Below are positions 3,195-27,065 of a stretch of DNA of 29,317 nt, piece by piece. The notes beneath the pieces are model-generated. The model worked only from the letters and a program-made list of their open reading frames with translations. It searched no databases and was not told where the DNA came from. Numbering within the stretch: the stretch's first letter is position 1; every line of letters begins with the position of its first letter. Position numbers and translations under genes: made by a program. The DNA comes from an uncultured bacterium (GTDB taxonomy: Bacteria; Planctomycetota; PLA2): contig CBDURV010000001.1 of NCBI GenBank assembly GCA_965369495.1, positions 1 through 29,317 of the forward strand, in the 5' to 3' direction.

Positions 3195-3232
3195 GGTACC
3201 CAATGCGCGAGCACGATAGCAGGTCGCGGATT

Positions 3233-3416
3233 CGATACGGTACCGGGTGTTTTCCTGCGAAACTCGCGAGTCAACTTGGCAGACGAGTTTCGGAGACTTA
3301 CTCCCGGTACCGGATCTCACGAGGCCGTCACGGCCCGCGACCGGGCGAGCATCGACCGGTGTCCTCTTCCGAGGGCGCGTACTCGGAAGAATCGTGCCTG
3401 GCGCAGTAGTTCCAGG
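3233..3416 (+). repeat. Full bipartite element R1: left flank CGATA + module A (3238-3312, 75 bp palindrome) + linker type alpha + module B (3349-3416)
   Basis: A = CGGTACCGGG-tgttttcctg-CGAAACTCG-17 nt-CGAGTTTCG-gagacttact-CCCGGTACCG. B = gcatcgaccggtgtcctcTTCCGAGggcgcgtaCTCGGAAgaatcgtgcctggcgcagtagttccagg. Near-identical to copies at 13323 and 18510. Confidence 0.95.
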
Positions 3417-3490
3417 GCCGAAAAACCGGCGTGGCTTTTATCCGGCTCGGTTTGCCACTGCGCCACGCGGAACGACCCTACAATCCGCGC

Positions 3491-6064
3491 GTGGGAAACC
3501 GTGCACTTGCCTTGCTCCTGATTCCGTTCCTGTTCGGCGCTTGCGATAAGAGCAGCGCGACAAAGCGGACGCCGCAGGCCGACTTCTCCGAGGACGCCGT
3601 CGCGGCGCGCGTCGAACTGCTGCGTGCCGATGTCGAAGCCGAGCTCGGCGACACGATCGGCTCCGTGGATGTGACAATTTCGACCCCGAAAGACATGGCG
3701 AAGCTGTTGCAGCCGGAGTTGGAGCGCACCTACTCTGAAATTGAGGGCGGCTTGCGCGGCGCAACCCTGAAGAAGCAGTGCGAACTCGAAGCGCAGGCAT
3801 ACTCGTCCGCCCTACTCGCCAAGGTCGCAATGACGGGAGCGGCGTTGCACGTCTGCCCCGAGAATTTCAAGCGCATCGCGGACATCACGCCGGAGTGGGC
3901 GGGGATCCAGTCGCCGGACGGGCTCGACATCATCTTGATCCATGAGCTGGTGCATGTCTGGCAGGAGCGCCGCTACAAGCTGGAGACGTTCATCGGAACG
4001 CCCAGGAGCCTGGATGCGTTGCTCGCGCGCAGCGCGGTGCTCGAGGGACATGCCCAGCTGGTGACGCGCGCGGTCGCGCAGCGGCGCGGGATCAGCGAGG
4101 CGTTCGAACTTCTGGAGAGGACCCAGACCGAGGTGCCGGATTCCACGACCGACCCGGCCGCGCGTCAGCAGATGCAGCTGACGCAAGCGGTGACGAGCTT
4201 CACCTATGCACAGGGGCTGCGTCTGTGGGACGAGGTGATTGCGGAACTGGGGCGCCCGGCTGCGGTTGAGCTGCTGTTCACGGAGCCCCCCAGCTCGACG
4301 CGGGCGGTGGAGCGCGAGGGGCAGTACCTTCACCCGACGCCGGAACCCGAGGTCGATCTGGATCGCGCGATCCGCCAGCTTCGTCGCTATCTCGGGGAGT
4401 TCGAAAAACAGCCGCCGCAGGTCGTACCGATGATGCACGGGGCGCTACGCGTCGCGCTCTCCGCCGGCGGACCCGTTGCGCAGCGCGCCATCGATGACGT
4501 CGTGCGCGGCGCCGGGGTTATTGGCGCGCGGCACATCGTCGGCGTCGTGTTGTGCCGAAGCCCGCGCGCCGCCCGCGCCCTGATGGAAGCGTCGCTGATC
4601 GACGCGCGCGCGCGGGTGAAGCTGTTCGCCGACGGCGCGACCACGTTGCGCATCGTGTCGGAAGAGGACGTGGCCGGCGTCGCGGGCAAGTTCCTGCAGC
4701 TCAGAGTCGAGTCGGGGGGCAACACGATCAAGCTCAAGCGGGGGCTGTTCGCGGACGGCTACATCTTCGTGGACGTCGTCGCGCCGGACGGGGATCGCGA
4801 GCGGATGGTGCGCATGCTTCCCCGCCTGGCCTCACTGTTGGCCAAACCGTCACCGTGGAGCGGGATGGAGCGAGCACAGGCGATCGCCGAGATGCAGACC
4901 AGCCTGTCGCACGCCGACGTGACGGTACGCTGGCGTGCAGTGCGCAACCTCGCCCGCCTGATCGAGGCGCGGCCGGACCTCGAGACGGCGCTCCTGGGTG
5001 CGGCCGCGGACGCCGATCCGGGTGTGCGCCTCGTGGTCATGCGCGCAATGGCCGCAGCGGGACACGACCTCGTTCGTTTCGCCAAGGACCACGACTGGGA
5101 GGTGCGCGAGGCGTACTGCCGGCTGCGCGCGGAAGACGACGATCCCAAGCCGAAGCGAATCGAGATGCTCAAGCCGTTCCTCACGGACGAGTCGCACCTG
5201 GTTCAGTTGGCGGCATGCGAGGCGCTTGAGGAACTCGATGCGGAAAAGGACATTTCTTTCGACGCGATTGAGACGCTCTTCGCCTCGCCGGACGGCCGCG
5301 TCCGCGAGGCTGCGCTCGGCCTGATCCACTACTCCGTAAAAGGCACGCGCATAGCGGACCTCATGCTGCGCGCACTCGATGACGAGGAGACCAACGTTCG
5401 CGCGCGCGCCGCCCGGCGCGTTGACAAATACGTCAGCGCAAGCGGTCGCGCCGTTCCGAAGCTGATAGGGCTCCTGGACGACAAGTCGGTGCGTGTACAG
5501 CTCGCCGCGTTGAACGGACTGGGGGATTACGGCGCCGGTGCCAAAGAGTCGGTTGGCCGGATCATCCCGATGCTGGACGACCCGAAGTTGCGCGACGCCG
5601 CCGCGGACGCGTTGGCGGAGATGGGTTCGGTAGCGGGAGCCGCCAAGCCGGCCCTGGTGCGTGGGCTGAACTCGGAAGATCGTCGCTTCGCGTTCAAGGC
5701 GGCGGAGGCACTCTGGAAGCTTCGCTATCCGCGGCTGAAGTTGCTGCCGGTTCTTGCGGACACACTCAAGAACGGCAGCAGGTGGGATCGCGGCGACGCG
5801 GCGACGCTGCTGGCCAAGATCGGTGAGCCTGCGCGCGGCTACATTCCGGAGATCATCGAGCTTCTGGATTCGGACCAGGAGTATGTGCGGCGTGACGCCA
5901 TACAGGCATTGGGCGAGTTCGGGCCGGCCGCCAAAGCGGCGTTGCCGAAGTTGCGCACGATGCTCAAGACGCTGCCCAACGGCGTCGATTCCGGTCTGGG
6001 CCTGGGCGGTGGCGAACTGCGGGCCACGACGGTCGAAACGGCGATCAAGAAGATCGAAGGCTAG
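3491..6064 (+). CDS. Putative lipoprotein: HEXXH zinc-metallopeptidase-like domain plus C-terminal HEAT repeats
   Basis: In-frame GTG at 3491 gives VGNRALALLLIPFLFGA-C (lipobox-like). IHELVHVWQ is followed by AVLEGHA (possible third Zn ligand). Many HEAT-like units (D....VR..A...L..). Start uncertain (ORF track 3431). Confidence 0.75.
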   Translation: MGNRALALLLIPFLFGACDKSSATKRTPQADFSEDAVAARVELLRADVEAELGDTIGSVDVTISTPKDMAKLLQPELERTYSEIEGGLRGATLKKQCELEAQAYSSALLAKVAMTGAALHVCPENFKRIADITPEWAGIQSPDGLDIILIHELVHVWQERRYKLETFIGTPRSLDALLARSAVLEGHAQLVTRAVAQRRGISEAFELLERTQTEVPDSTTDPAARQQMQLTQAVTSFTYAQGLRLWDEVIAELGRPAAVELLFTEPPSSTRAVEREGQYLHPTPEPEVDLDRAIRQLRRYLGEFEKQPPQVVPMMHGALRVALSAGGPVAQRAIDDVVRGAGVIGARHIVGVVLCRSPRAARALMEASLIDARARVKLFADGATTLRIVSEEDVAGVAGKFLQLRVESGGNTIKLKRGLFADGYIFVDVVAPDGDRERMVRMLPRLASLLAKPSPWSGMERAQAIAEMQTSLSHADVTVRWRAVRNLARLIEARPDLETALLGAAADADPGVRLVVMRAMAAAGHDLVRFAKDHDWEVREAYCRLRAEDDDPKPKRIEMLKPFLTDESHLVQLAACEALEELDAEKDISFDAIETLFASPDGRVREAALGLIHYSVKGTRIADLMLRALDDEETNVRARAARRVDKYVSASGRAVPKLIGLLDDKSVRVQLAALNGLGDYGAGAKESVGRIIPMLDDPKLRDAAADALAEMGSVAGAAKPALVRGLNSEDRRFAFKAAEALWKLRYPRLKLLPVLADTLKNGSRWDRGDAATLLAKIGEPARGYIPEIIELLDSDQEYVRRDAIQALGEFGPAAKAALPKLRTMLKTLPNGVDSGLGLGGGELRATTVETAIKKIEG

Positions 6065-12469: not shown

Positions 12470-12571
12470 CACGAGACCGTCACTGCCCGCGACGACCGGG
12501 TAAGCATCGACCGGTGTCCTCTTCCGAGGGCGCTTACTTGGAAAAATTGTGCCTGGCGCCGTACTTCCAGG
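12470..12571 (+). repeat. Partial element R2: linker type alpha plus module B, without module A
   Basis: cacgagaccgtcactgcccgcgacgaccgggtaagcatcgaccggtgtcctcttccgagggcgcttacttggaaaaattgtgcctggcgccgtacttccagg aligns over ~100 nt with 3318-3416. Confidence 0.9.
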
Positions 12572-13322: not shown

Positions 13323-13500
13323 CGGTACCGGGTGTTTTCCTGCGAAACTCGCGAGTCAATTTGGCAGACGAGTCTCGGAGAATTACTCCCGGTACCGAAT
13401 CTCGGGTCGATCCGGACCGGGATTAGATGCACGGCATCGACCGGTGTCCTCTTCCGAGGGCGCTTACTCGGAAAAATTGTGTCTGACGCCGTATTCCCGT
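13323..13500 (+). repeat. Full bipartite element R3: module A (13323-13397) + linker type beta + module B (13434-~13497)
   Basis: Module A differs from R1 at 3 of 75 positions. Linker aatctcgggtcgatccggaccgggattagatgcacg. Begins 9 nt after the PEP-CTERM stop. Confidence 0.95.
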
Positions 13501-13565
13501 TGCTGCGCTGACCACGTAGATCCTGGTCAACCGAAGGAGGCGCGAAATTCCGGAACGAGCCGTCC

Positions 13566-14723
13566 TCAGTCGCGAGGTGGGATCTCGCGGAGCGTCCACG
13601 GTCCGGCTCGGTTGTCGCGGTTCGCCAGCTCCGGCACCGCGATGTACGGCAACTCCAGCGTGGCGGCCACGTGGGACAACCGGCTTCCGAGTGACGGATC
13701 CACGACCCCCACGCACCCGTTCCACAGCGGACTGTTCGGCTGGGGCAGGTCGCCCCTCTTGGTCTCGCTGACCAGGAAGAACGGCTCCGACGGCTGTTCG
13801 GATCCCGGCGCGAACAGCACGCCGCTCGCCGGTGAATCGAACACTGCCACGCCGCTCGCGAAGCGTTGGCCGTCCTCTTCGCGAACGAGCTCACCGGACT
13901 TGCGGTAGGTGCCGAAGGAGTGCTGCACCGGTCGAAGTTGATGGCAGTAGAGGCGGTCGGTGGCCACCCACTCGACATCGATGTCGAAGCCGGCCACGTC
14001 ACGGATGCGCCAGCCCTGTTCAACCACTCTGCGGACCGTGTCGAGGTGGCGCTGGGCGTGCAACTGCCCGGAGCCCGAGGATGCTTGAAGGTTGATCTCA
14101 CCCCAGTAGGGAGCCTTCCTTTCGCCGACTTTCGCGATCGGGTTGTCGCGCTCGACGTCGAGGCACCACGAAACGTGGCCGCCGACCGTGCCGTTCCACC
14201 ACTTGTGCGCGAGCATCAGGTCTTCCGCGTCGCAGAATTCTATTACCAGCTCGTTGCCGGATGTGGCGAGATTGCCCGTCAGGGTCTGGGGCGAGAGTTG
14301 TTCGAGGTGGAAGGTCGGTACCTGAAGCACCAGCGCGACGCTGTCGTTTCCCTCGAACGGCGGTTGTGCCTCGAGGAACGCGGCGTACACGCGGCGCGCG
14401 ACCTCGACAGCTTCTTTCGCTGACGTGACCATGTGCGAGTACGTCTGGCCGCAGGACGGGCGGCGCGTGAAGAGGGAGCCGCGCACGAGTACGCGCGTGT
14501 GACCATGCGTCAGCGCCGCGTACTCCGCCGCCACGGTCTTGGCGAGATCTTCGGGAAGCGCCTGGCAACCGTTCTGAGTCAGTGCGTCCCGGTGTTGTTC
14601 GAACGCGGCGGTCGGGACCACACGGTAGGGAGCGACGTTTGCGCCGGGGATGCCGGACAGGACGAACAGGCCCGCGCCCTTGTCGCCCTGCTCGTGGGCG
14701 CGATCGCCGAAATCCGCGCGCAT
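13566..14723 (-). CDS. Minimal PEP-synthase/PPDK-like enzyme (ATP-grasp PEP/pyruvate-binding-type domain plus phospho-His swivel domain)
   Basis: GDKGAGL, VLVRGS, SCGQ, ALVLQ and DIDVEWV...LYCHQLRPV parallel PEP synthase GGKGASL, AVRSS, SFAGQ, VQ and DIEWA...LFIVQARP. GSRLSHVAATLELPYIAV parallels [21 protein letters not shown] with the His kept. Only 385 aa. Confidence 0.75.
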   Translation of the reverse strand: MRADFGDRAHEQGDKGAGLFVLSGIPGANVAPYRVVPTAAFEQHRDALTQNGCQALPEDLAKTVAAEYAALTHGHTRVLVRGSLFTRRPSCGQTYSHMVTSAKEAVEVARRVYAAFLEAQPPFEGNDSVALVLQVPTFHLEQLSPQTLTGNLATSGNELVIEFCDAEDLMLAHKWWNGTVGGHVSWCLDVERDNPIAKVGERKAPYWGEINLQASSGSGQLHAQRHLDTVRRVVEQGWRIRDVAGFDIDVEWVATDRLYCHQLRPVQHSFGTYRKSGELVREEDGQRFASGVAVFDSPASGVLFAPGSEQPSEPFFLVSETKRGDLPQPNSPLWNGCVGVVDPSLGSRLSHVAATLELPYIAVPELANRDNRAGPWTLREIPPRD

Positions 14724-14733
14724 GGCCGTTCGA

Positions 14734-16119
14734 TCACGTCTTGTGTTGCTGCAAGAAGTTCGAGAGCTTCTCGTACACGTCCTCCGAGGAGTCGTACTCG
14801 ATCATCTCCATGCCTTTCAGGTCCGTGGGAACCGCCTCGCTCCGTTTCCTGAGCAGGACCGTCGTCTTCCCGCGCCCGTACACGAGCCCCAGCTCCATCA
14901 TCACGCTCGGACTCCAATGGGTGATGTCGACTACAGCGCAGTCCGCTTCCTGCATCATCTGGCACACCTTGCACATGATGTCGACGTTGGAGACCTCTTC
15001 GTCCGCACGCTGAGGCTTGTAACCGCAAGCATCACCCGCGCGTTTGATGCCGTACTTGTAGATGTCGTTCATTTCCGGCTTGTACGACATAGCAACGAAC
15101 ATGTTTCTTGAGCTGTACGCGATCTCCTTCGGACACGGTTGCCCCCCGCCGAGCTTCCAGCAGGTCATCGTCGACACTTCTGTCACTTCGAGGAACCGGC
15201 GGACCTCCGGGTGCTTGTCAAGCCCCGTGAGAACCGCGACGCATTCGCCGCTTTCGACCGCGGGGGTCTTAACGACGAGCGTGTCGGTCGCCAGCGCCGC
15301 CTCGGAGTCATCCGCGTCCACGCTCTTGAGGACGCCCGTCATGCGCGCGTACGGCCAGTACCGGTCGAACAGCGGGGTGTGCCGTGTTTCGATGTCCTGC
15401 GGCTCCCGTGAATCCGAATCGAGACGACAGGAGCCGAGAGTGCAGATACCCGGGCTGAGTCGCTCGCGCTCTTCCGGCGTGCAGGCGACAAGGCCTTGGA
15501 GATACGCGTTGATCGTGCTTCGCGCGCGCTCGCGATACTCCGCTTGGTTTCCCGGATACGCGGGGTTGCGGAGTTGGGGTTCGCTCAGGAGGACGGCGCT
15601 GTCGAACACCCTCTTCTCCAGGGCCTGCTCGAGTTCGCGGAAGTAGACCGCGGAGTTCTTCGTGATGACGTCCACGAAGTTCGAGTTGTACGTGGGTACG
15701 ATCGCGAGCAAGGTCAAATAGGGTGCCGTGGCCCCGCGAAAGGCGTTGCGAACGTCGCGCGCCATCTCGAACGTGAGCCCGTTGCTGATTCCGCCCCGTG
15801 GCGAAGAACTGAGCGCGACCACCGCGGGGACGGCGCCATCCTCCTCCATGCTGCGCCGGAGCCGGTCCAGCTCGTCCAGAATCCGGCTCTTCGAATCGTC
15901 GTAGATCCGGCGCGCGTGCGAAATGTCGCGATCCGCGCTTACCTCCGCGCGAAGGACGACCCGGCAAGCGACATCCGGAAGTTCGGCCTCGTGGAGCGCG
16001 GGATCGCTGTCCACGCACATCACGTACCCGGAAGACTGAACGAGATCCGGACCGACAATGGAGGTCAGCAGGGTTCCACGTCCCCCGATTCCAATCATGC
16101 AAATCGCGTCTCTGCTCAT
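14734..16119 (-). CDS. Tubulin/FtsZ(CetZ)-like GTPase-fold domain fused to a C-terminal nucleoside 2-deoxyribosyltransferase/TIR-like domain
   Basis: GAGGAG then ATG at 16119. IGIGGRG (T1), VDSD, SSSPRGGISNGLTFEMA (degenerate GGGTGSG loop), LTLLAIVP and FDSAVLLSE occur in FtsZ order. The C-terminus FVAMSY...RADE...IMCKV...EADCAVVDIT..SPSVMMELG....K..VLL...VPTDL.G...IEY matches NDT-like domains (NPNV.YELG). Confidence 0.7.
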   Translation of the reverse strand: MSRDAICMIGIGGRGTLLTSIVGPDLVQSSGYVMCVDSDPALHEAELPDVACRVVLRAEVSADRDISHARRIYDDSKSRILDELDRLRRSMEEDGAVPAVVALSSSPRGGISNGLTFEMARDVRNAFRGATAPYLTLLAIVPTYNSNFVDVITKNSAVYFRELEQALEKRVFDSAVLLSEPQLRNPAYPGNQAEYRERARSTINAYLQGLVACTPEERERLSPGICTLGSCRLDSDSREPQDIETRHTPLFDRYWPYARMTGVLKSVDADDSEAALATDTLVVKTPAVESGECVAVLTGLDKHPEVRRFLEVTEVSTMTCWKLGGGQPCPKEIAYSSRNMFVAMSYKPEMNDIYKYGIKRAGDACGYKPQRADEEVSNVDIMCKVCQMMQEADCAVVDITHWSPSVMMELGLVYGRGKTTVLLRKRSEAVPTDLKGMEMIEYDSSEDVYEKLSNFLQQHKT

Positions 16120-16168
16120 CTCCTCGTCCTCCGCGGTTGACCGTTCGCCCTTGTAGCATGAACCTCCC

Positions 16169-17104
16169 GTGAACCCGGGCGCCGCACCGCAACCGACCCT
16201 CGTTTTCCCGTCCACCAACCCCGATCTCGACGGGGTTGCGTGTGCGTGGGCCTATGCCGAGTTGCTGCGCAGCTCGGGCGAGGACGCGCTGGCGTGGGTG
16301 GCCGGCGAGCCCGACGGGGAGGCGCGCTGGGTGCTGCAGGAACGCGACGTGGAGATCTCGCGCGACCCGGAGGCGATCGGTACGGCGGGTCGGTTCGTCT
16401 ACGTCGACGGGAGCGAGTTGCCCGGGCTGCCGGAAGGCATCGATCCCATTGCAGTCGTCGAGGTCATCGACCACCGTCGCCAGCATCGCGCGGCGACGGA
16501 CTTTCCGAACGCACGCCTTCAGATCGAAGCCGTGGGCGCAGCCGCGACCCTGGTGCTCGAGCGCTTCCGGGAGACGTGGGCCGACCCATCCCCCGAATCG
16601 GCGATCCTTCTCTACGCGGCGATTCAATCGAACACGCAACGCCTCAATGGATCGGTCACCACGGAGCGCGATCGGCGGGCCGCCGCCTACCTCGAGACCG
16701 TCTGCGAACCGCCGCGCGACCTGATTGCCCGCCAGATGGCGGCGCGCCGGTCCGAGATCCTCGCGGACCTGCGCGCTGCCGTGAAGGCGCAGAGCAAGAC
16801 GTTCACGGCTGCCACGGGCGCGTTCGTCGTCGCGCAACTCGAGCTGCCGGGTGTTGAGGTGCTGCTACGCGAGCGCGACTTCAAGGAGACTCTCGCGGCC
16901 AGCCTGGATGGCCCCCGCGCCATGGTCAACATTGTCGACTCCGCGCTCGGCAGGTCGTTCCTGTTGGTACCGAATGCGGAGTTCCGGGACGAAGTCGCCG
17001 CGGGAGTGGGGCGCGAGTTCAACGGGCAGATCGCGACGATGCAGTCCGCGATGCTTCGAAAACAGATCGTGCACGCTCTCGGCGCCCGGGCCGGCACCGA
17101 GTGA
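16169..17104 (+). CDS. DHH-family phosphoesterase, family II (Mn-dependent) inorganic pyrophosphatase-like, with variant metal ligands
   Basis: NPDLDGVACAWAYAELL, VYVD, EVIDHRR, IEAVGAAATLV, LLYAAIQSNT and TTERD align with PpaC NPDTDTICSAIAYADL, ILVD, EVIDHHR, EPVGCTATIL, LMLSAIISDS and TCTDQD. Confidence 0.8.
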   Translation: MNPGAAPQPTLVFPSTNPDLDGVACAWAYAELLRSSGEDALAWVAGEPDGEARWVLQERDVEISRDPEAIGTAGRFVYVDGSELPGLPEGIDPIAVVEVIDHRRQHRAATDFPNARLQIEAVGAAATLVLERFRETWADPSPESAILLYAAIQSNTQRLNGSVTTERDRRAAAYLETVCEPPRDLIARQMAARRSEILADLRAAVKAQSKTFTAATGAFVVAQLELPGVEVLLRERDFKETLAASLDGPRAMVNIVDSALGRSFLLVPNAEFRDEVAAGVGREFNGQIATMQSAMLRKQIVHALGARAGTE

Positions 17105-17150
17105 CGAAACTCGGATCCCTTGTCCGGGATCGAAACCCTGTGCTTCCCGT

Positions 17151-17162
17151 CGATACGGTACC
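17151..17162 (+). repeat. Left end of element R4 (CGATA-CGGTACC), split by the IS
   Basis: Joining 17151-17162 to 18512 onward rebuilds CGATACGGTACCGGGTGTTTTCC exactly as at 3233, and a 75-bp module A. Confidence 0.9.
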
Positions 17163-17195
17163 CCTTTAGAAAAGTGCAAGGGCCGATCTCATCCT

Positions 17196-17410
17196 GACAG
17201 TTCTGGCATTGGATTTCGTTCCTGTGGGCCCGTCCGCGTCGGTCTTGTCCAGTCGCCTTGTCGAGCTGGGCGGAGCCCGCTCAGGAAAGTAGTCGGCGGG
17301 GCCTTCATCCGAGGTGACGGCCTCTGTGAGGCCAGTAGCGCATCGAAGTGCCTCGCCGTTGAGTTCCGACTTGGTCGGGTAGTCTGTTTTGATGTCGAAG
17401 AGCGTGCGCG
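17196..17410 (-). ncRNA. Candidate seek/bridge RNA region (3' non-coding end of the IS1111-like element)
   Basis: Position downstream of the transposase and inside the subterminal IR matches where IS1111-type elements encode guide RNA (established knowledge). Local hairpins include CCGAC-CAA-GTCGG and GGCCTC-ACA-GAGGCC. Guide segments were not identified by eye. Confidence 0.5.
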
Positions 17411-18438
17411 CTACGCCTTGCCGAGGCAGCGCTCCATGCTGAATACTTCGCCGCGCGACAGCACGATGTAGATGCCGACCAGCAGGCGCCGCGCGAGAGT
17501 CGTCCGCACGTTGTTGGCATGCATCCGGCGCCGGTAGGGCTCGGCCCACTTGCGCACCAGCGGATGCGTGCTCATCAGCCGCACCGCGGTCTGGTTGAGG
17601 ATCCAGCGCAGCTCCTTGTTGCCCTTCTTGGTGATCCGGCCGTGGTGGCTCGTATCTGCCGAGTTGGCGACCCGTGGCACAAGCCCACTGTAGGACGCCG
17701 CCGCGCGCGCGTTGCGAAAGCGGCTCACGTCACCGAGCTCGGCCACCAGCGTCAACGCGGTCTGCGCGCCGACCTGCGGGATCATCGCCTGCAGCGCGGC
17801 AACCTTGCTCGCTTTGGCGCGTTCGACGATCCGCTTGTGCAGTCGTCGGATCGACTCCTCCATCTGCTCCAGCGCAAACACCAGCGCGTCCATGCAGCAG
17901 TCGAGATCCAGCACCGCTAGGCAGATCGCCCGCAGGCGCGCTAGCTGGCGGGGTGCGTAGAGCAGCCCTCTGGGCGGGGCGACCTTGAACGCGTCCAGCA
18001 GCGCGCGGATGCGATTGCTCAGGTGCGTGCGCTGCCCGACGAGGTCGTGCCGGATCCGCTCGAGCTGACGCAGTGCATACACCTCGTCGGACGGATAGTG
18101 GTCTTCGCAAAGCGATCGAGATCACCGAGACGCAGGCGCCGCGCGATCTCGTGCGCGTCGCGACGATCGTTCTTCTTGCCGCAGGACCGCAGATTGAGCC
18201 GCGCCGCATCGACGACAACGATGTCGTAGCCGCGTTCTTGGCAGGCGTTGACAAACCAGCGGTTCAAGCCGACCGCCTCCACGGCGAATCGAGCGGGGCT
18301 CCACTGGCTCAGATGGGCGACGAGGGCGAGCCCCAGATCGAGCGTCTCGACCCGATGGCGCTCCTCCGCGTCGAGCACACGAATCTGAATCACACTCTTG
18401 TGCAAATCGACTACAACGAAATACTGGGTATGGGGCAT
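17411..18438 (-). pseudogene. IS110-family transposase with a one-base deletion near 18100
   Basis: N-part: VDLHK, AVEAVG, KKNDRRDA (DEDD RuvC-like). C-part: IPQVGAQTA..LVAELGD..RF.NAR...SYSGLVP....SAD....GRITKKGN..LR. The frames join at AAG ACC AC TAT CCG TCC GAC GAG; adding one base gives a ~342-aa protein. AAGGA RBS upstream of the ATG at 18438. Confidence 0.9.
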
Positions 18439-18509
18439 GGTCGGTTGTTCCTTTCCGTCTTGTGGGAAGACTTCAGAAAGGATGCGATCGGCCTACCCCG
18501 CTATACCTT

Positions 18510-18681
18510 CCGGGTGTTTTCCTGCGAAACTCGCGAGTCAATTTGGCAGACGAGTTTCGGAGAATTACTCCCGGTACCGAATCTCGGGTCGATCCGGACC
18601 GGGATTGGATGCACGGCATCGACCGGCGTCCTCTTCCGAGGGCGCTTACTCGGAAAAACTGTGTCTGACGCCGTACTTCCT
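18510..18681 (+). repeat. Remainder of full element R4: module A (to 18579) + linker type beta + module B (18616-~18681)
   Basis: ccgggtgttttcctgcgaaactcgcgagtcaatttggcagacgagtttcggagaattactcccggtaccgaatctcgggtcgatccggaccgggattggatgcacggcatcgaccggcgtcctcttccgagggcgcttactcggaaaaactgtgtctgacgccgtacttcc, nearly identical to R3. Confidence 0.95.
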
Positions 18682-18734: not shown

Positions 18735-21416
18735 ATGGCCGCCGATGCCCCCGCCCTCATCCTGCGCGACGGAACGACCGTGCGTGTGCGGCTGTGTACG
18801 CCCGAAGACGTTCCGGCGATGCGGGAGTTTCTGGCCCGCGTCGAACAGCGCGCCGGTAGCGACAGCACCCTGCGCGAGCGAGCCATGGGGCACGTTACCG
18901 TGGAGGAGCTTTGCGACTGCGAGCGGCCGGATGACCGATTGACAGTGCTTGCGCTGCGCACGATCGACGGCGTGGAGCGCGTCGTCGGATCGGCGAGCTA
19001 TGTCGCCACTGACGACGGCGCAGCCGAGATCGCCCTGGGCGTCGATGCGGACTTCCGCGGGCTTGGTCTCGCGACGGCGCTGGTCGAGCGGATCGCACCG
19101 GCCGCCGCACACCATGGCCATCGACGGCTGATCGTGCGCGTGGCAGAGGGCAACGAGCGCCTGCTCGAGTTGCTGCGGCGCAGCGGTTACCCCCTCGCGG
19201 AGGACCAGGCGCGTGGCCTCGTCGTCGTGGACATCTCTGCCATGCCGCAGGGCGAGGCCCGCGAACGCGGAGAACTGCGCGATCGCCTGGCAGCCGCCGC
19301 GTCGATGCGCCCCTTCTTCCATCCGCGCGCCGTCGCCGTAGTGGGAGCGTCCCGCAACGAGGACAGCCTCGGCTTCCGCACGCTGCACGCCCTCGTGCTG
19401 AATCGCTTCCACGGTCCCGTCTATGCGGTGAACCCGAAGGCGGCCAGCGTCGGCGCGATCCCCTGCTACCCCTCTGTAAGCGAATTGCCGGGGCCCGTCG
19501 ATCTCGCCATCGTCCTCGTCCCCAAGCAGCATGTCGATGCCGTCGTGGACGACTGCGCGGCGGCGGGCGTCCGCGCGCTGGTCGTCATCACCGCAGGCTA
19601 CGCGGAGACGGGCGAAGAGGGACGGGCGCGCCAGGATCGCCTGCGGGATCGCGTGCGCGGCCATGGCATGCGCATGGTCGGGCCGAACTGCATGGGGCTC
19701 ATCAACGCCGACCCCGAGGTGCGCTTGGCAGCCACGTTCGCTCCCGCGTTCCCGCCGGCCGGCAACGTCGCCATGAGTTCGCAGAGCGGTGCGCTCGGCC
19801 TGGCCATTCTCGCGACCGCGGAGGAGATCGGCATGGGCCTCTCCACGTTCGTGAGCGTGGGCAACAAGGCTGACGTCTCGGCGAACGATCTGTTGCTCTA
19901 CTGGGAAGGCGACGAGCACACGGACGTGATCCTGCTCTACGTCGAGTCCTTCGGCAACCCGCGCTGCTTCGCGCGCATCGCTCGGCGCATCGGCCGCGAG
20001 AAACCCATCGTCGCAGTGAAGAGCGGCCGCACGCGCGCAGGCAAGCGGGCCGCGGGGAGTCACACGGCCGCCCTCGCCGAGAGCGACGTCGCGGTCGATG
20101 CGCTCTTCAGCCAGACGGGCGTGCTGCGGGCGGAGACGCTGGAGGAAATGTTCGACATCGCGTTGGTGCTGTCGAGCCAGCCTCTGCCGCGAGGCAACCG
20201 GGTGGCCATCCTCACCAACGCCGGCGGGCCCGGCATCCTGGCCGCGGACGCCCTTGAGTCCCGCGGCATGCAGATCGCGGAACTGAGCGCGGACGTGCGG
20301 GCGCGGCTCGCGGAGTTCCTCCCGGAGGAGGCCAGCACCACGAACCCCGTCGACATGATCGCCGGGGCCGGTGCGCAGGAGTACGCGCGCGCGGTGCAGG
20401 TGCTGCTCGAGGCAGACGAAGTGGATGCGCTGATTCTGATTCACGCGCCGATCGAGGCTTCGCATCTCGTCTCCGTGGAAGATGCCCTGCACGATGTGCT
20501 CGCGAAGATCGACGCAGACGATCACAAGCCGGTGCTGACTTGTTTGATGGGGGCCGGGGGAAGGGGGCCGGCACGGCGCCTGCGTCGCGGGGTGCCGTCC
20601 TACGCGTTTCCGGAGGCGGCCGCGCGTGTGCTTGGGCGAGTCGCCGAATACGCGGCGTGGCGTCGTGAACCCCTGGGCGTCGAGCCTGAGTTCGAGGATT
20701 TCAACGCGGATGCCGCGCGCGGCGTGTGCGATCGCGTGCTGGCCGAGCGCGGAGACGGCTGGTTGCTGCCCGACGAGGTGGCGGCACTCGGTGCGGCCTG
20801 CGGACTGCCGCTCGTGGAGGGGCGTGTCGCGACGTCGGCCGACGAGGCGGCCGACGTCGCGGAGTCGCTCGGGATGCCGGTCGTCGCGAAGCTCGTCAGC
20901 CGCACCCTGGTTCACAAGACCGACCTTGGCGGCGTGCAGCTGAATCTGCGTGACGCCGCGGCAGTGCGGAACGCGTTCGACACCATCCGCGGAGCGCTCG
21001 AGACGGCGGGCCACGAAGACGCGTTCGAGGGCGTGCTGGTGCAACCCATGCTCTCGGGCGGCGTCGAGATCATGGCCGGCATGACCGAGGATCCGGTCTT
21101 CGGGCCCTTGATTGCCTTCGGTCTCGGCGGAATTCACGTCGAGGTGTTGGGGGACGTGGTGTTCCGCGTGGCGCCCCTGACCGACAAGGACGCACACGAG
21201 ATGGTGCAGGGCATTCGCGGTCGCAAGCTCTTGGAGGGCTACCGGGGCCATCCGCCGGCGGACGAGCCGGCGCTCGAGGAAATGTTGCTGCGCCTGTCGC
21301 GACTGGTGGACGAGGTCGACGAGATCGACGACCTCGACATCAATCCGGCGTTCGCCCTGCCGCCCGGCGAAGGTTGCCGGATCGTGGATCTACGCGTGCA
21401 CGTGCGGCGCGGTTGA
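18735..21416 (+). CDS. GNAT acetyltransferase (N-terminal) fused to an NDP-forming acyl-CoA synthetase-like region (Pat-type protein lysine acetyltransferase, GNAT-first architecture)
   Basis: LRDGTTVRVR...ED, AEIALGVDADFRGLGLATAL (GNAT). FFHPRAVAVVGASR, GPVYAVNP, GPNCMG, SQSGALG, VSVGNKADVS, YVESFGNP, KSGRT, SHTAALA, TNAGGPG, NPVD. ATP-grasp HKTDLGGV, VLVQPM, DPVFGP, DINP. Confidence 0.9.
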   Translation: MAADAPALILRDGTTVRVRLCTPEDVPAMREFLARVEQRAGSDSTLRERAMGHVTVEELCDCERPDDRLTVLALRTIDGVERVVGSASYVATDDGAAEIALGVDADFRGLGLATALVERIAPAAAHHGHRRLIVRVAEGNERLLELLRRSGYPLAEDQARGLVVVDISAMPQGEARERGELRDRLAAAASMRPFFHPRAVAVVGASRNEDSLGFRTLHALVLNRFHGPVYAVNPKAASVGAIPCYPSVSELPGPVDLAIVLVPKQHVDAVVDDCAAAGVRALVVITAGYAETGEEGRARQDRLRDRVRGHGMRMVGPNCMGLINADPEVRLAATFAPAFPPAGNVAMSSQSGALGLAILATAEEIGMGLSTFVSVGNKADVSANDLLLYWEGDEHTDVILLYVESFGNPRCFARIARRIGREKPIVAVKSGRTRAGKRAAGSHTAALAESDVAVDALFSQTGVLRAETLEEMFDIALVLSSQPLPRGNRVAILTNAGGPGILAADALESRGMQIAELSADVRARLAEFLPEEASTTNPVDMIAGAGAQEYARAVQVLLEADEVDALILIHAPIEASHLVSVEDALHDVLAKIDADDHKPVLTCLMGAGGRGPARRLRRGVPSYAFPEAAARVLGRVAEYAAWRREPLGVEPEFEDFNADAARGVCDRVLAERGDGWLLPDEVAALGAACGLPLVEGRVATSADEAADVAESLGMPVVAKLVSRTLVHKTDLGGVQLNLRDAAAVRNAFDTIRGALETAGHEDAFEGVLVQPMLSGGVEIMAGMTEDPVFGPLIAFGLGGIHVEVLGDVVFRVAPLTDKDAHEMVQGIRGRKLLEGYRGHPPADEPALEEMLLRLSRLVDEVDEIDDLDINPAFALPPGEGCRIVDLRVHVRRG

Positions 21417-21431
21417 TCACGCTCGCGAGTA

Positions 21432-21556
21432 CGGTTCCGGGAGTCTTCTTGCGAAACTCGCGGGAAGACCGATCTGGCCTCCCGCACCGGGGCCAACAGC
21501 TCCGGCAAGCCGCGCCAATTCGACAGACGAGTTTCGACGAGTTCTTCCCGGTACCG
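21432..21556 (+). repeat. Diverged module A (R5, 125 bp) with a 50-nt central insertion
   Basis: First 30 nt match the consensus 26/30 and last 45 nt match 36/45. The insert (21462-21511) sits at the hairpin apex. CGAAACTCG/CGAGTTTCG inner boxes are intact. Confidence 0.85.
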
Positions 21557-21585
21557 TATTCGGGCGCAGTTGCTCCGGGACGCGA

Positions 21586-24416: not shown

Positions 24417-24487
24417 CGGTACCGGGTGTTTTCCAAACTCGCGGGTCAAATTGGCAGACGAGTTTCGGAGAATTACTCCCGGTACCG
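24417..24487 (+). repeat. Module A copy R6 (71 bp; 4-nt deletion of TGCG), preceded by an inverted left-end motif CGGTACCGTATCG (24404-24416)
   Basis: cggtaccgggtgttttcc----aaactcgcgggtcaaattggcagacgagtttcggagaattactcccggtaccg; ends 4 nt from the stop of the next gene. Confidence 0.92.
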
Positions 24488-24491
24488 GGCC

Positions 24492-27065
24492 TCAGTTCGC
24501 GCTGAGTTCGCTCCACTTCACGTCCGGCTTGTCGGCGCCGGGAGGCACGTCATCGAGGAATCCGAGTTCGGCCGCGCGAGTGCGGAACTGGAGCTTGTAG
24601 GGCGTTCGATCGTCGGCGGCGACGAGCAACCGGAACTCCCCCGCGGTGTTGGTAACAGCGGTCGCGTTCCTCTCTCCTGCGCGGTACGCGGTCACCGTCA
24701 CGCCCTGCGCCGGGCGCCCGTCGCGCATCAACCGTCCGGTAATCGGGTCGGCAATGCGAAAGCGCACTTCGACCGTCTGGCCATTCGGGACAAACGAACT
24801 CACCTTGGGCGCCGCGAGGTCTCCGCCTTCCCACTTCACGACCAGTGGGCACGGGTGGCTGGGAAGTCCATGCGTGGTCACCTCGCCCTTGGCGTTCGTC
24901 CGCCCAAACAGACTCACCATGGCGCCACGGATCGGCGTGCCATCGGGGCGCAGGACGCGGATCGTCACCGTTGACTTGCGGCGCTTGGGAGCTGTAACCA
25001 CAAGATTGACCGGCGCACCGCCGGGTACCGCTCCACCGACGCTCCCCTGCCAGCGGCCGCTTGTTCTGCCCCCGCTCACAGATCCCTCCCCCAGAAAGTC
25101 GATGCGGCACGGACCGCCGGGCGCGACGTAGAGCGTGAACTCTCCGTTTGCGTTTCCAGTCACCTCGGCGATCTTCTTGCCTCCCCGACTCGCGCGCACC
25201 ACGGGGCGTTCGATGCGCGTTCCTTTCGCCGTGACGACGGTGCCGCGAATTGGAACCCCTCGCGCCATGACGAGGTGCACCTCGGTCTCGTCGCCGTCGA
25301 GATCGCGGCTGACCGTCAGATAGCCTTCAGCCGCGGTCCGCACCGACACGCTCGAAGGCGGTTCCGGCAACTGGAACAGCGCCCGTCCCTGCGCGTCAAA
25401 CTGCGCGAACGCAGTCTCGTTCTCCATGGTTACCCATGCGTACGCGCCCGGGACGGGCTTTCCGTTTTCGTCCGCCACCGTGACCACGAACGGCCGTCCC
25501 GGCGGTAGCTCCACCAGCACCTCGACGTCCACGGCGCCCACGACGATGCGCTTCACGAAGCGTGGCGCACCGGGCCGCGGCACACGCAGGTGATAGGTCC
25601 CGGGGGCAAGTCCACCGACCTCGAAACGACCAAGATCATCGGTGCGCGCGTAGGCGTACATGCCCGCGACGATCGCACTCGCGCGGCCACTGCCCAGCAG
25701 ACGGCCGCGGTCGGCATTGGCCCCGGACAGTCCCAAGCGCTGCTCGCCGACCGGTTGTCCGCCCTGCACAACCCGCCCGCGAATGGAAAGCGCCAGCGGA
25801 AGCTCGATCTGCCCGAGGTCCACCTCCGGCGGTTGACCGCGCTTGGGCGGGTGGAACTCGAGCAGCGTCCGGCCATACCCGGCGGCGACGATAATGACCG
25901 TATGCGGCGTCGCCGCGCGCAGGTCGGCGATTTCGAACGCCCCATCCGCGCCGGTCCGGCCGACGCAACTCGTGCTGAGTCCGATTGGTCCCGTCACGCT
26001 CCTGCGCGTGCTGCGGCCGCGGCCCACCGCGGTCACCTGCTCCCCGGCGATCGATCGGCCGTCGGCCCCGACAACCACTCCGCGCACCGTGAACCCCCGC
26101 CGAAGCTTGAAGTTGACCTCGCCACTCGCGCCGATCGTGGACGCCTCGGCGCCGTAGCCCTGCGCGGTAACGAGCACGATCTGGTGGTCGGGCAAATTCC
26201 AGATCAGGTCATAGCGACCATTGTTGTCGGTCCGCGCGTGAAGCTTCCGCCACGCTTCTGTTCGCCCCACGCGCGCCCCGGGAATCGGATTGCCCGTGAC
26301 CTCTTCGATGACCCGCCCGAAGACGCGCTTGCCCGGCTTGAAGCGCGCCTCGAAGACGCTTGCGCCCGACGCCGGCAGCTCCAGCTTGCGTTCGGCGAAG
26401 GCGCCATGGCGCGCATGCTCGACGTGAAGTTGCGCAACGATGCCCGGCGGCAGATCGGTCAGGCGCCAGTTGCCGGCCGCATCGGTCGTGCCGCGACGGT
26501 CGATGTGCGGTGCCTCGCGAACCGTGTGGCGCACCAACTGCACGTCGGCGCCCGCGACCACCTCGCCCGAAGCGCCGACGACATGCACGGTCAAGATGAC
26601 CGGTGCGCCGAGTTCAACGCGCACGCGCCCGCCCGCCCGGCGCATGGCCATCGTCACCGGTGCGAACCCCGCGGCGCGAACGAAGAGGGTCACGACGGCG
26701 TCCTGCTCCAGCGTGAGGGAAAAGGAACCATCGACAGCACTGATCGTCGCGGGACCCTCAAACGACGGGCCGACGTCATCGGCCAGCGGCAGGGGCACCG
26801 ACCGGCGCGGAAAAAACCGCACCCGCACGTCGGCGCCCGGAACCGGCTTGCCATCGGCGGCGCGCACGATGATGCCGTGCAGGTCACGCTCCCGATCGAC
26901 CACCGCCAGGTCAATCGGCTCAGGATAGGCGGGATGCCGTGGCGGCTCCGTGATGTGCTCGACCGGCGCAGAAGCCCGGCGCGTCCGCCGAACGGGGTCT
27001 TCAGCCCCGAGCAGCCATAGTCCAAGCCCGCACCCCAGAACGAGCAACCCCACCATCCATCGCAT
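24492..27065 (-). CDS. Membrane-anchored protein with carboxypeptidase-regulatory-like (prealbumin-fold) repeats
   Basis: ATG at 27065 gives MRWMVGLLVLGCGLGLWLLGA. Repeats G.V....G.P..GA.V and TD..G.F....L..G.Y.L (GRVIEEVTGNPIPGARV, TDDLGRFEVGGLAPGTYHL, VADENGKPVPGAYA). Confidence 0.8.
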   Translation of the reverse strand: MRWMVGLLVLGCGLGLWLLGAEDPVRRTRRASAPVEHITEPPRHPAYPEPIDLAVVDRERDLHGIIVRAADGKPVPGADVRVRFFPRRSVPLPLADDVGPSFEGPATISAVDGSFSLTLEQDAVVTLFVRAAGFAPVTMAMRRAGGRVRVELGAPVILTVHVVGASGEVVAGADVQLVRHTVREAPHIDRRGTTDAAGNWRLTDLPPGIVAQLHVEHARHGAFAERKLELPASGASVFEARFKPGKRVFGRVIEEVTGNPIPGARVGRTEAWRKLHARTDNNGRYDLIWNLPDHQIVLVTAQGYGAEASTIGASGEVNFKLRRGFTVRGVVVGADGRSIAGEQVTAVGRGRSTRRSVTGPIGLSTSCVGRTGADGAFEIADLRAATPHTVIIVAAGYGRTLLEFHPPKRGQPPEVDLGQIELPLALSIRGRVVQGGQPVGEQRLGLSGANADRGRLLGSGRASAIVAGMYAYARTDDLGRFEVGGLAPGTYHLRVPRPGAPRFVKRIVVGAVDVEVLVELPPGRPFVVTVADENGKPVPGAYAWVTMENETAFAQFDAQGRALFQLPEPPSSVSVRTAAEGYLTVSRDLDGDETEVHLVMARGVPIRGTVVTAKGTRIERPVVRASRGGKKIAEVTGNANGEFTLYVAPGGPCRIDFLGEGSVSGGRTSGRWQGSVGGAVPGGAPVNLVVTAPKRRKSTVTIRVLRPDGTPIRGAMVSLFGRTNAKGEVTTHGLPSHPCPLVVKWEGGDLAAPKVSSFVPNGQTVEVRFRIADPITGRLMRDGRPAQGVTVTAYRAGERNATAVTNTAGEFRLLVAADDRTPYKLQFRTRAAELGFLDDVPPGADKPDVKWSELSAN

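Follow-up and report, generated by a model that had tools for sequence, protein, structure and literature searches.

The window analysed here, 29,317 nucleotides (nt) in length, is the whole of contig C1 of a metagenome-assembled genome (4.36 Mb, 78% complete) and carries a compact block of three genes, designated A, B and C, in which a nucleotide-switch domain fused to an N-glycosidase effector of known kind is accompanied by a dikinase as its unusual partner and by a probable accessory phosphohydrolase, a combination that is real and undescribed. Genes B and A very probably constitute one functional unit. The balance tips slightly towards a role of this pair in defence or conflict, and is even for the fuller reading, in which the block is a rare, undescribed anti-phage or other conflict module with the two-gene operon B-A as its core and C as a probable accessory. 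The features of the block are as follows.

13566-14723, reverse strand: gene A, 385 amino acids (aa), a PPDK_N-type ATP-grasp (approximately residues 1-265) followed by a C-terminal region with an invariant His351.
14734-16119, reverse strand: gene B, 461 aa, counted from the ATG that matches the homologues.
15160-16119, reverse strand: N-terminal part of B, residues 1-320, a complete FtsZ/tubulin fold.
14734-15114, reverse strand: C-terminal part of B, residues 336-461 and the stop codon, an NDT/MilB/TIR-like N-glycosidase domain.
16169-17104, forward strand: gene C, 311 aa, a DHH + DHHA2 family II (Mn) pyrophosphatase homologue.
16120-16168: divergent spacer, 49 nt between the starts of B and C on opposite strands.

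The open reading frame (ORF) of B extends beyond the matching ATG up to a TTG at 16218. An original prediction, made from the letters of the window alone, had described the three genes and their coordinates, with 10 nt between the B stop and the A start and 49 nt between B and C, and all of this was confirmed on the sequence. The tubulin/FtsZ-like-NDT fusion that it proposed was upheld in both halves, by fold comparison (Foldseek, VIA-align, Atlas) for the first and by the NDT/TIR-like nature of the second; ATP-grasp structure matches likewise upheld the PEP-synthase/PPDK-like family of A, and the divergent DHH pyrophosphatase-like gene C proved to be a DHH/DHHA2 family II homologue with changed catalytic residues. 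The observation made in that prediction is confirmed and its interpretation is partly supported.

Directly after B, gene A was found in four other metagenomic contigs (L001, L002, L003 and L024) from independent samples, at 37-45% identity and with spacings ranging from a 4-nt overlap to an 83-nt gap. Every A homologue with upstream sequence has B before it, and every B homologue with downstream sequence has A after it. The pair is rare: a word-indexed search with B returned B itself only, scanning by pattern for A and B brought no additional B-A locus to light in 185,579 GTDB species genomes, JGI metagenome contigs and IMG/VR, and A gave no plasmid match. The GTDB scan with B recovered the effector domain only, in other architectures, and in 400 genomes of the host phylum matches were again confined to that domain. 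Among sequencing runs, a small share of the block was detected in only one, a marine sediment metagenome.

The N-terminal part of B was examined in an AlphaFold2 model (pLDDT, the predicted local distance difference test score, of 70) computed from an alignment of four homologues. In this predicted structure residues 3-320 form a full FtsZ/tubulin fold with the GTPase domain and the C-terminal domain both present. Foldseek against the PDB matched FtsZ of M. tuberculosis, CetZ, TubZ and BtubAB at E values of 3e-10 to 1e-8 over approximately 330 columns, and VIA-align, which is independent of Foldseek, gave tubulin-superfamily matches with Z scores of 17-23 over 254-307 aligned residues (CetZ 23.3 and 22.0, BtubA 21.6, eukaryotic and Asgard tubulins approximately 21, TubZ 19.0, FtsZ 18.7 and PhuZ 17.4). 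In the ESM Atlas, B fell with a cluster of phage/bacterial tubulins (TM 0.54/0.63); a search of the Atlas by features, again with B, yielded nothing usable. The Pfam Tubulin family (PF00091) had no match in B at E <= 0.1. The sequence GIGGRG occupies the T1 position, and the T4 position reads SSPRGGISN in all homologues, as against the tubulin signature GGGTG(S/T)G. When the N-terminal domain was used as a profile against 1.84 billion representative proteins, a total of four representatives was found, none of them FtsZ or tubulin, and the same search showed no alternative effector fusions. A 507-aa entry of AlphaFold DB annotated as 'Tubulin/FtsZ GTPase domain-containing' (A0A7G1HSL1) aligned to B residues 1-459 at 8.9e-16 and may have a similar C-terminal domain behind a canonical tubulin/FtsZ domain. 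The three PF00091 matches of the host phylum were considered as canonical FtsZ-effector fusions and rejected, two being short FtsZ-like proteins and one an FHA-FtsZ-like protein that lacks the effector domain.

Against Pfam, B matched NDT (PF05014) at 2.9e-5 (24.6 bits, gathering score 28.8) and CAP12-PCTIR_TIR (PF10137) at 0.098 (13.1 bits, gathering score 24.7), and a member of the same effector subfamily on contig L029 exceeded both gathering scores (30.5 and 43.7 bits, respectively). The best of the weak TIR-effector matches of B in PADLOC was PDLC00733 (1.9e-7). Structural alignment of residues 336-461 by VIA-align placed the domain with the CMP N-glycosidase MilB (Z 13.7), nucleoside deoxyribosyltransferases (13.5 and 13.1), RCL (12.5) and TIR domains including that of SfSTING (11-12). 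Glu409 of the MELG motif is shared by all 12 sequences compared, and in a PDB profile search it fell on the matching E-x-G motif of NDT, CAP12 and MilB, which in these families carries the catalytic Glu. Four Cys residues (C320, C329, C383 and C386) are invariant in the B family and in the wider effector subfamily and may constitute a metal site; together with SN-x-D-x-MCK-x-C and P-N-V-x-x-E-L-G-L they mark the subfamily. Its members were found in eight GTDB genomes, fused to AAA_35 ATPase, CDC48_N, HEAT-repeat, TPR-like and PUA-like domains. The L029 member (2047-4311) is a 614-aa protein in which a TPR-like region precedes two tandem four-Cys effector domains, and the reading frame after it bears a weak resemblance (32% over 113 aa) to radical SAM enzymes of the viperin type.

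The window protein of gene A had no Pfam match, PF01326 included, and PF00391 was found neither in A nor in its family members; one of five family members matched PF01326 at 3.3e-5. Its assignment was obtained from the confident part of the model, residues 1-265, for which Foldseek against the PDB returned rifampin phosphotransferase (3.3e-10), PEP synthase (3.8e-7), PPDK (1e-5) and HpeI (1e-5), from language-model features of the Atlas, which grouped A with PPDK_N + PEP-utilizers proteins of 355-419 aa (0.93), and from hhalign, which placed D-x-EW...Q-x-RP of A on the PPDK_N motif that is the hallmark of the family. The one strong feature of the C-terminal approximately 90 residues is His351, invariant within GSRLSH-x-AA. 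Pairwise comparison of profiles set it on the phospho-His of the PEP-utilizers swivel domain at an E value of only 0.046, in a region modelled with pLDDT below 50, and the C-terminal region is probably such a swivel phospho-His domain. A third, phosphoryl-acceptor-binding domain is absent, as the ATP-grasp extends to approximately residue 265 and the remainder of the 385 aa is taken up by the His region. Two characterised dikinases are relevant to this architecture: VadK (Rv1127c) of M. tuberculosis, a PPDK lacking the pyruvate/phosphoenolpyruvate (PEP) domain, which autophosphorylates and regulates partner enzymes (PMC13400623), and the two-component dikinase HpeHI, whose ATP-grasp and His/acceptor parts work as separate proteins (PMC12167813).

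Gene C matched Pfam DHH at 8.4e-7 and the NCBIfam Mn-dependent pyrophosphatase model at 3.8e-29 (102 bits against a cut-off of 283), and aligned to PDB 1i74 at 1.7e-15 over residues 10-300, covering DHH and DHHA2 in full length. In this alignment His9, His98 and Asp149 of the pyrophosphatase are replaced by Ser15, Arg103 and Asn155, respectively, and the pyrophosphatase residues Asp13, Asp15, Asp75 and His97 are retained together with the pyrophosphate (PPi)-binding Lys205, Arg295 and Lys296. Among 73 relatives of C, Arg replaces His98 in 66, Asn replaces Asp149 in 72 and none has His at position 9; K210, R297 and K298 are kept in 46-48 of the 48 close relatives. Since this replacement pattern is conserved among the 73 relatives, the change in the active site is a trait of the family and not decay, and by its sequence C is a member of a conserved family II pyrophosphatase variant, 'DHR'.

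C is carried by 0 of the 10 genomes of the host's family and by 3 of 401 of its phylum. From the 48-member clade of C, six further contexts were sampled, the DHH proteins in them sharing at least 42% identity with C. A viperin cassette headed by the relative of C was present in five (G309, P0013, P0027, P0043 and P0031), with the order DHH variant, prokaryotic viperin, a convergent PPDK_N/PEP-utilizers protein of approximately 600 aa and a conserved 291-aa protein (cassettes at L020 7001-11453, L022 7001-11432, L023 7001-11429 and L019 4892-10304). The viperin scored 261 bits with NCBIfam viperin_w_prok and 256 bits with PADLOC pVip, and the cassettes often adjoin restriction/helicase-type genes (SNF2/MmeI- or PLD-type); no paper was found in the literature on a cassette of DHH variant, pVip, PPDK_N and 291-aa protein. 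The 291-aa protein has no Pfam match; its AGRDS and CLGCH motifs recall PP-loop ATPases. In the sixth context (L021 7001-10548) the DHH variant lies on an integrative and conjugative element (ICE) of a Desulfobacter-like chromosome, near type IV secretion system and relaxase genes, and is followed by a 633-aa PNP_UDP_1 protein (PADLOC PDC-M60C, PN-superfamily, a CBASS-type effector model) and then by a cytidylyltransferase-like gene.

More distant relatives were found in further settings. A 38%-identical DHH variant of the host phylum (G116, L033 5352-6997) overlaps a 246-aa SIR2-family gene by 4 nt, the pair lying downstream of a Ser/Thr kinase with beta-propeller repeats, and a 34%-identical variant on a Halorussus plasmid (L042 6177-7933) adjoins a cytidylyltransferase-like gene; a SelD-like identity of the 445-aa neighbour of the Halorussus homologue was not borne out by Pfam and was dropped. 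A distant C-related clade stands in a housekeeping context. The maximum-likelihood tree of the 48 close relatives separates a subclade of 30, which includes all five viperin-linked proteins, from one of 18, which includes the window C and the ICE gene. The clade of C is thus a recurrent companion of nucleotide-acting conflict genes, most often with a PPDK-class enzyme, and supports the trio indirectly.

The block lies between two repeats, and the features at its edges are the following.

13328-13498: repeat R3, 171 nt, left edge of the three-gene block, from a family with 31 matches.
17151-18680: repeat R4, right edge, interrupted by an IS110-family element, with the repeat copy at 18510-18680.
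17411-18082 and 18019-18438, reverse strand: IS110-family transposase in two overlapping ORFs (223 aa and 139 aa; PF02371 at 1.3e-21, PF01548).

That R3 and R4 bound the block, as originally proposed, is correct: the 171-nt copy R3 is 96-97% identical to 18510-18680, though the repeat family fills most intergenic regions. R3 is 83% identical to 3243-3413, and near-identity (97%) is seen only between the two copies that flank the block, each of which is the nearest relative of the other. The family is modular and intergenic, with 31 matches in the 4.36-Mb assembly clustered on few contigs; its members in the window lie at 3243-3413, 12493-12571, 13328-13498, 18510-18680, 21423-21568 and 24435-24499, and others lie on contigs C63, C29, C31, C124 and C141 of the same assembly (G000). 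As the repeats fill most intergenic regions of the contig and match 31 times in the genome, bounding by two of them says little for the block being a unit. The transposase in R4, being split over two ORFs, carries a frameshift or a programmed frame shift.

The original prediction had also noted that parts of the block are richer in A+T than the flanks and had proposed horizontal acquisition. The AT-rich stretch is real; it lies in the TIR-like domain of B, where amino-acid composition lowers the G+C content at the first and second codon positions. It is no signal of foreign DNA, the value at third positions (GC3) being 0.82 for A, 0.81 for B and 0.84 for C against 0.74-0.85 in the flanking genes. 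With GC3 equal to that of the flanks, recent transfer has no compositional support, and only the patchy distribution stands behind the claim of horizontal acquisition. An empty site could not be demonstrated in a genome of the same genus (G415), which is too diverged; its DNA matches to this region are limited to the end of the insertion sequence (IS), at 17152-17503. A consensus scan of the 49-nt spacer between B and C found no sigma-70-like promoter. Directly to the right of the block, at 18735-21416 on the forward strand, is an 893-aa protein with GNAT, CoA-binding and ATP-grasp domains, the architecture of a Pat-type protein acetyltransferase or ADP-forming acyl-CoA synthetase. The other genes of the window encode, besides this protein, a PEP-CTERM protein and HEAT-repeat proteins, four of which are large.

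Several observations weigh against the reading of the block as a three-gene conflict module. The trio A-B-C was seen once, in this window, which leaves the B-A pair as the conserved part of the three-gene unit originally proposed; the other B-A contigs end short of the position expected for C. In L003, 193 nt upstream of B were available and contained no DHH-like start on the opposite strand. The 18-member subclade of C is sister to the pVip-linked one, with one other context sampled in it, and A is not closely related to the PPDK_N proteins of the viperin cassettes: the two were compared as possible close relatives and aligned only in the common family motif. The nucleotide-binding signature of B differs from that of tubulin and FtsZ, which makes GTP binding and polymerisation only putative, and the identity of the C-terminal domain of A, given its low pLDDT, hangs on one motif. 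The effector fold is marginally nearer to MilB/NDT, which belong to nucleotide metabolism, than to TIR in VIA-align. PADLOC-DB v2 recognises no system in the window, with weak TIR-effector matches for B and none for A or C, and the window lacks the character of a defence island, with neither a viperin nor a cyclase nor any other system gene found in it.

The first two of these points favour the explanation that B-A is a self-contained two-gene module and that C is an independent accessory gene merely adjoining it. So do the varied partners of the relatives of C, namely pVip, PNP_UDP, SIR2 and cytidylyltransferase-like genes, with a housekeeping setting in the distant clade, and the eight loci with the same effector subfamily, which carry neither A nor C. 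However, C is rare in the phylum and yet stands 49 nt from B inside a block with near-identical repeats, and its clade is found beside PPDK_N-type enzymes in five of the six contexts sampled. The explanation is a minority view, though one to be taken seriously; C is the probable third, accessory component, and its membership of the B-A unit falls a little short of an even chance.

For the pair itself, the conflict-type reading follows from the fusion of the effector subfamily to many alternative domains, as one effector fused to many sensor domains is typical of conflict systems, and the neighbour genes of C point the same way. Two claims of the original prediction are to be kept in part. The conflict-effector nature of the NDT/TIR-like domain agrees with the multi-domain fusions of its subfamily and finds no more than weak TIR-effector matches in PADLOC; proximity to defence genes, which it had suggested checking, holds for the clade of C, with its viperin, PNP_UDP and SIR2 neighbours, and not for the window. 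Its statement that it knew of no described system with this composition stands, none having been found in the literature, where no paper was found either on an FtsZ- or tubulin-effector fusion or on a PPDK-like partner of TIR-type effectors.

An improbable alternative is a metabolic module, in which the N-glycosidase, the dikinase and the phosphohydrolase would serve the synthesis or salvage of a small molecule derived from a nucleoside, for instance a nucleoside antibiotic or a cofactor precursor. The best structural matches of the effector domain, MilB (CMP N-glycosidase of mildiomycin biosynthesis), nucleoside deoxyribosyltransferases and RCL, would suit such a pathway, as would the phosphorylation of small molecules by ATP-grasp dikinases, for example the rifampin phosphotransferase RPH and HpeHI (PMC12167813), and the lack of a defence-island context in the window. 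However, fusions to AAA_35, CDC48_N, HEAT and TPR-type domains are the signature of conflict and not of a pathway, further biosynthetic genes are missing next to the block, the module is distributed extremely sparsely and patchily, and a pathway would have no obvious use for the FtsZ-fold fusion. It is very improbable that B serves the cytoskeleton or cell division in a lineage that lost FtsZ. Its fold is that of FtsZ/tubulin, and the host lineage, like Planctomycetota, apparently lacks FtsZ as judged by family searches (PF00091 was not found in the host genome, in eight relatives or in 58 of 61 phylum genomes at least 90% complete, and was present in 13 of 14 controls). However, other members of the host's genus and family lack B, which hence cannot be the division protein of these relatives, the matches in 400 phylum genomes being to the effector domain only. 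B has four representatives in 1.84e9 proteins, includes a nucleotide-cleaving domain and is enclosed by mobile repeats, with an IS adjacent.

Within the conflict reading, a working model may be drawn by analogy with known systems, although in its specific assembly-switch form it is more probably wrong than right by a clear measure. The FtsZ-fold domain would take the role of the STAND/AAA or SAVED domains of other effector fusions, and nucleotide-dependent head-to-tail assembly of B would cluster the effector domains and thereby switch on N-glycosidic cleavage. The substrate could be NAD+ or (d)NMP, the cleavage of which would shut down the infected cell. A would load its His from ATP, first as pyrophosphoryl-His and then as phospho-His, as in PPDK, PEP synthase and rifampin phosphotransferase. 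As A has no acceptor domain of its own, it could act in trans on B or on a B-bound nucleotide, arming or resetting the switch, for which VadK and HpeHI may serve as precedents. C, in which PPi-binding residues are kept and the metal site is changed, would remove PPi or a (pyro)phosphate-bearing product of the B-A reactions. Taken together, this would be a new immune switch in which FtsZ/tubulin-fold polymerisation fires a fused nucleotide-cleaving effector, a PPDK-derived His-phosphotransfer enzyme charges or resets it and a re-tooled pyrophosphatase clears the by-product, a proposal to be regarded as speculative and rather doubtful.

Were it true, immunity triggered by filaments would have an origin separate from that of the STAND, SAVED and TIR-only assemblies, and the FtsZ/tubulin fold would join the small set of nucleotide-driven assembly modules that fire bacterial suicide effectors. 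PPDK-derived enzymes without a substrate domain would gain a second biological role after VadK. The locus would also be tied to a recurrent, unpublished theme in which the 'DHR' pyrophosphatase variant accompanies dikinases and antiviral nucleotide enzymes such as viperin, which would point to unexplored phosphate chemistry in nucleotide-based immunity. The proteins encoded by A, B and C are small and soluble-looking. Even if the defence reading fails, an orphan FtsZ-fold family has in this locus its only example with a long context.

Among known systems, the viperin cassette shares with the window the DHH-variant clade and a PPDK_N-class dikinase within a compact unit. It differs in that the window has neither viperin nor the 291-aa gene, that A lacks the middle domain of the cassette dikinase and that the DHH protein of the window falls in the sister subclade. 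PpaC, the family II Mn-dependent pyrophosphatase, has the same DHH + DHHA2 length as C and the same metal-binding Asp residues, His97 and PPi-binding Lys and Arg residues, whereas the clade of C (at least 73 proteins) differs at His9 (S/K/R), His98 (R) and Asp149 (N), and C is an accessory gene linked to defence-type neighbours.

B has in common with FtsZ, CetZ, TubZ, PhuZ and BtubAB the complete two-domain fold and a Gly-rich loop after strand 1, and in the model an invariant acidic residue, E217, lies near the T7/H8 position of the superfamily, after the predicted core helix; however, identity with the superfamily is only 9-17%, and B adds a C-terminal enzyme domain. With CAP12 of CBASS, PycTIR of Pycsar and other fused TIR-like defence proteins it shares a flavodoxin-like N-glycosidase fold, a catalytic-type Glu in an E-L/I/F-G motif and the fusion of the effector to a putative nucleotide-dependent assembly or sensor domain. 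It is set apart from them by the FtsZ/tubulin fold of its partner domain and by the conserved set of four Cys, and, unlike in CBASS and Pycsar, there is no cyclase or second-messenger gene near B. Finally, A and VadK share the architecture of an ATP-grasp and a His region, with the substrate domain absent in both (PMC13400623). Compared with VadK, HpeHI and rifampin phosphotransferase, A is far more divergent, to the point of having no Pfam match, and shorter at 385 aa, and it alone is strictly coupled to an FtsZ-fold fusion.

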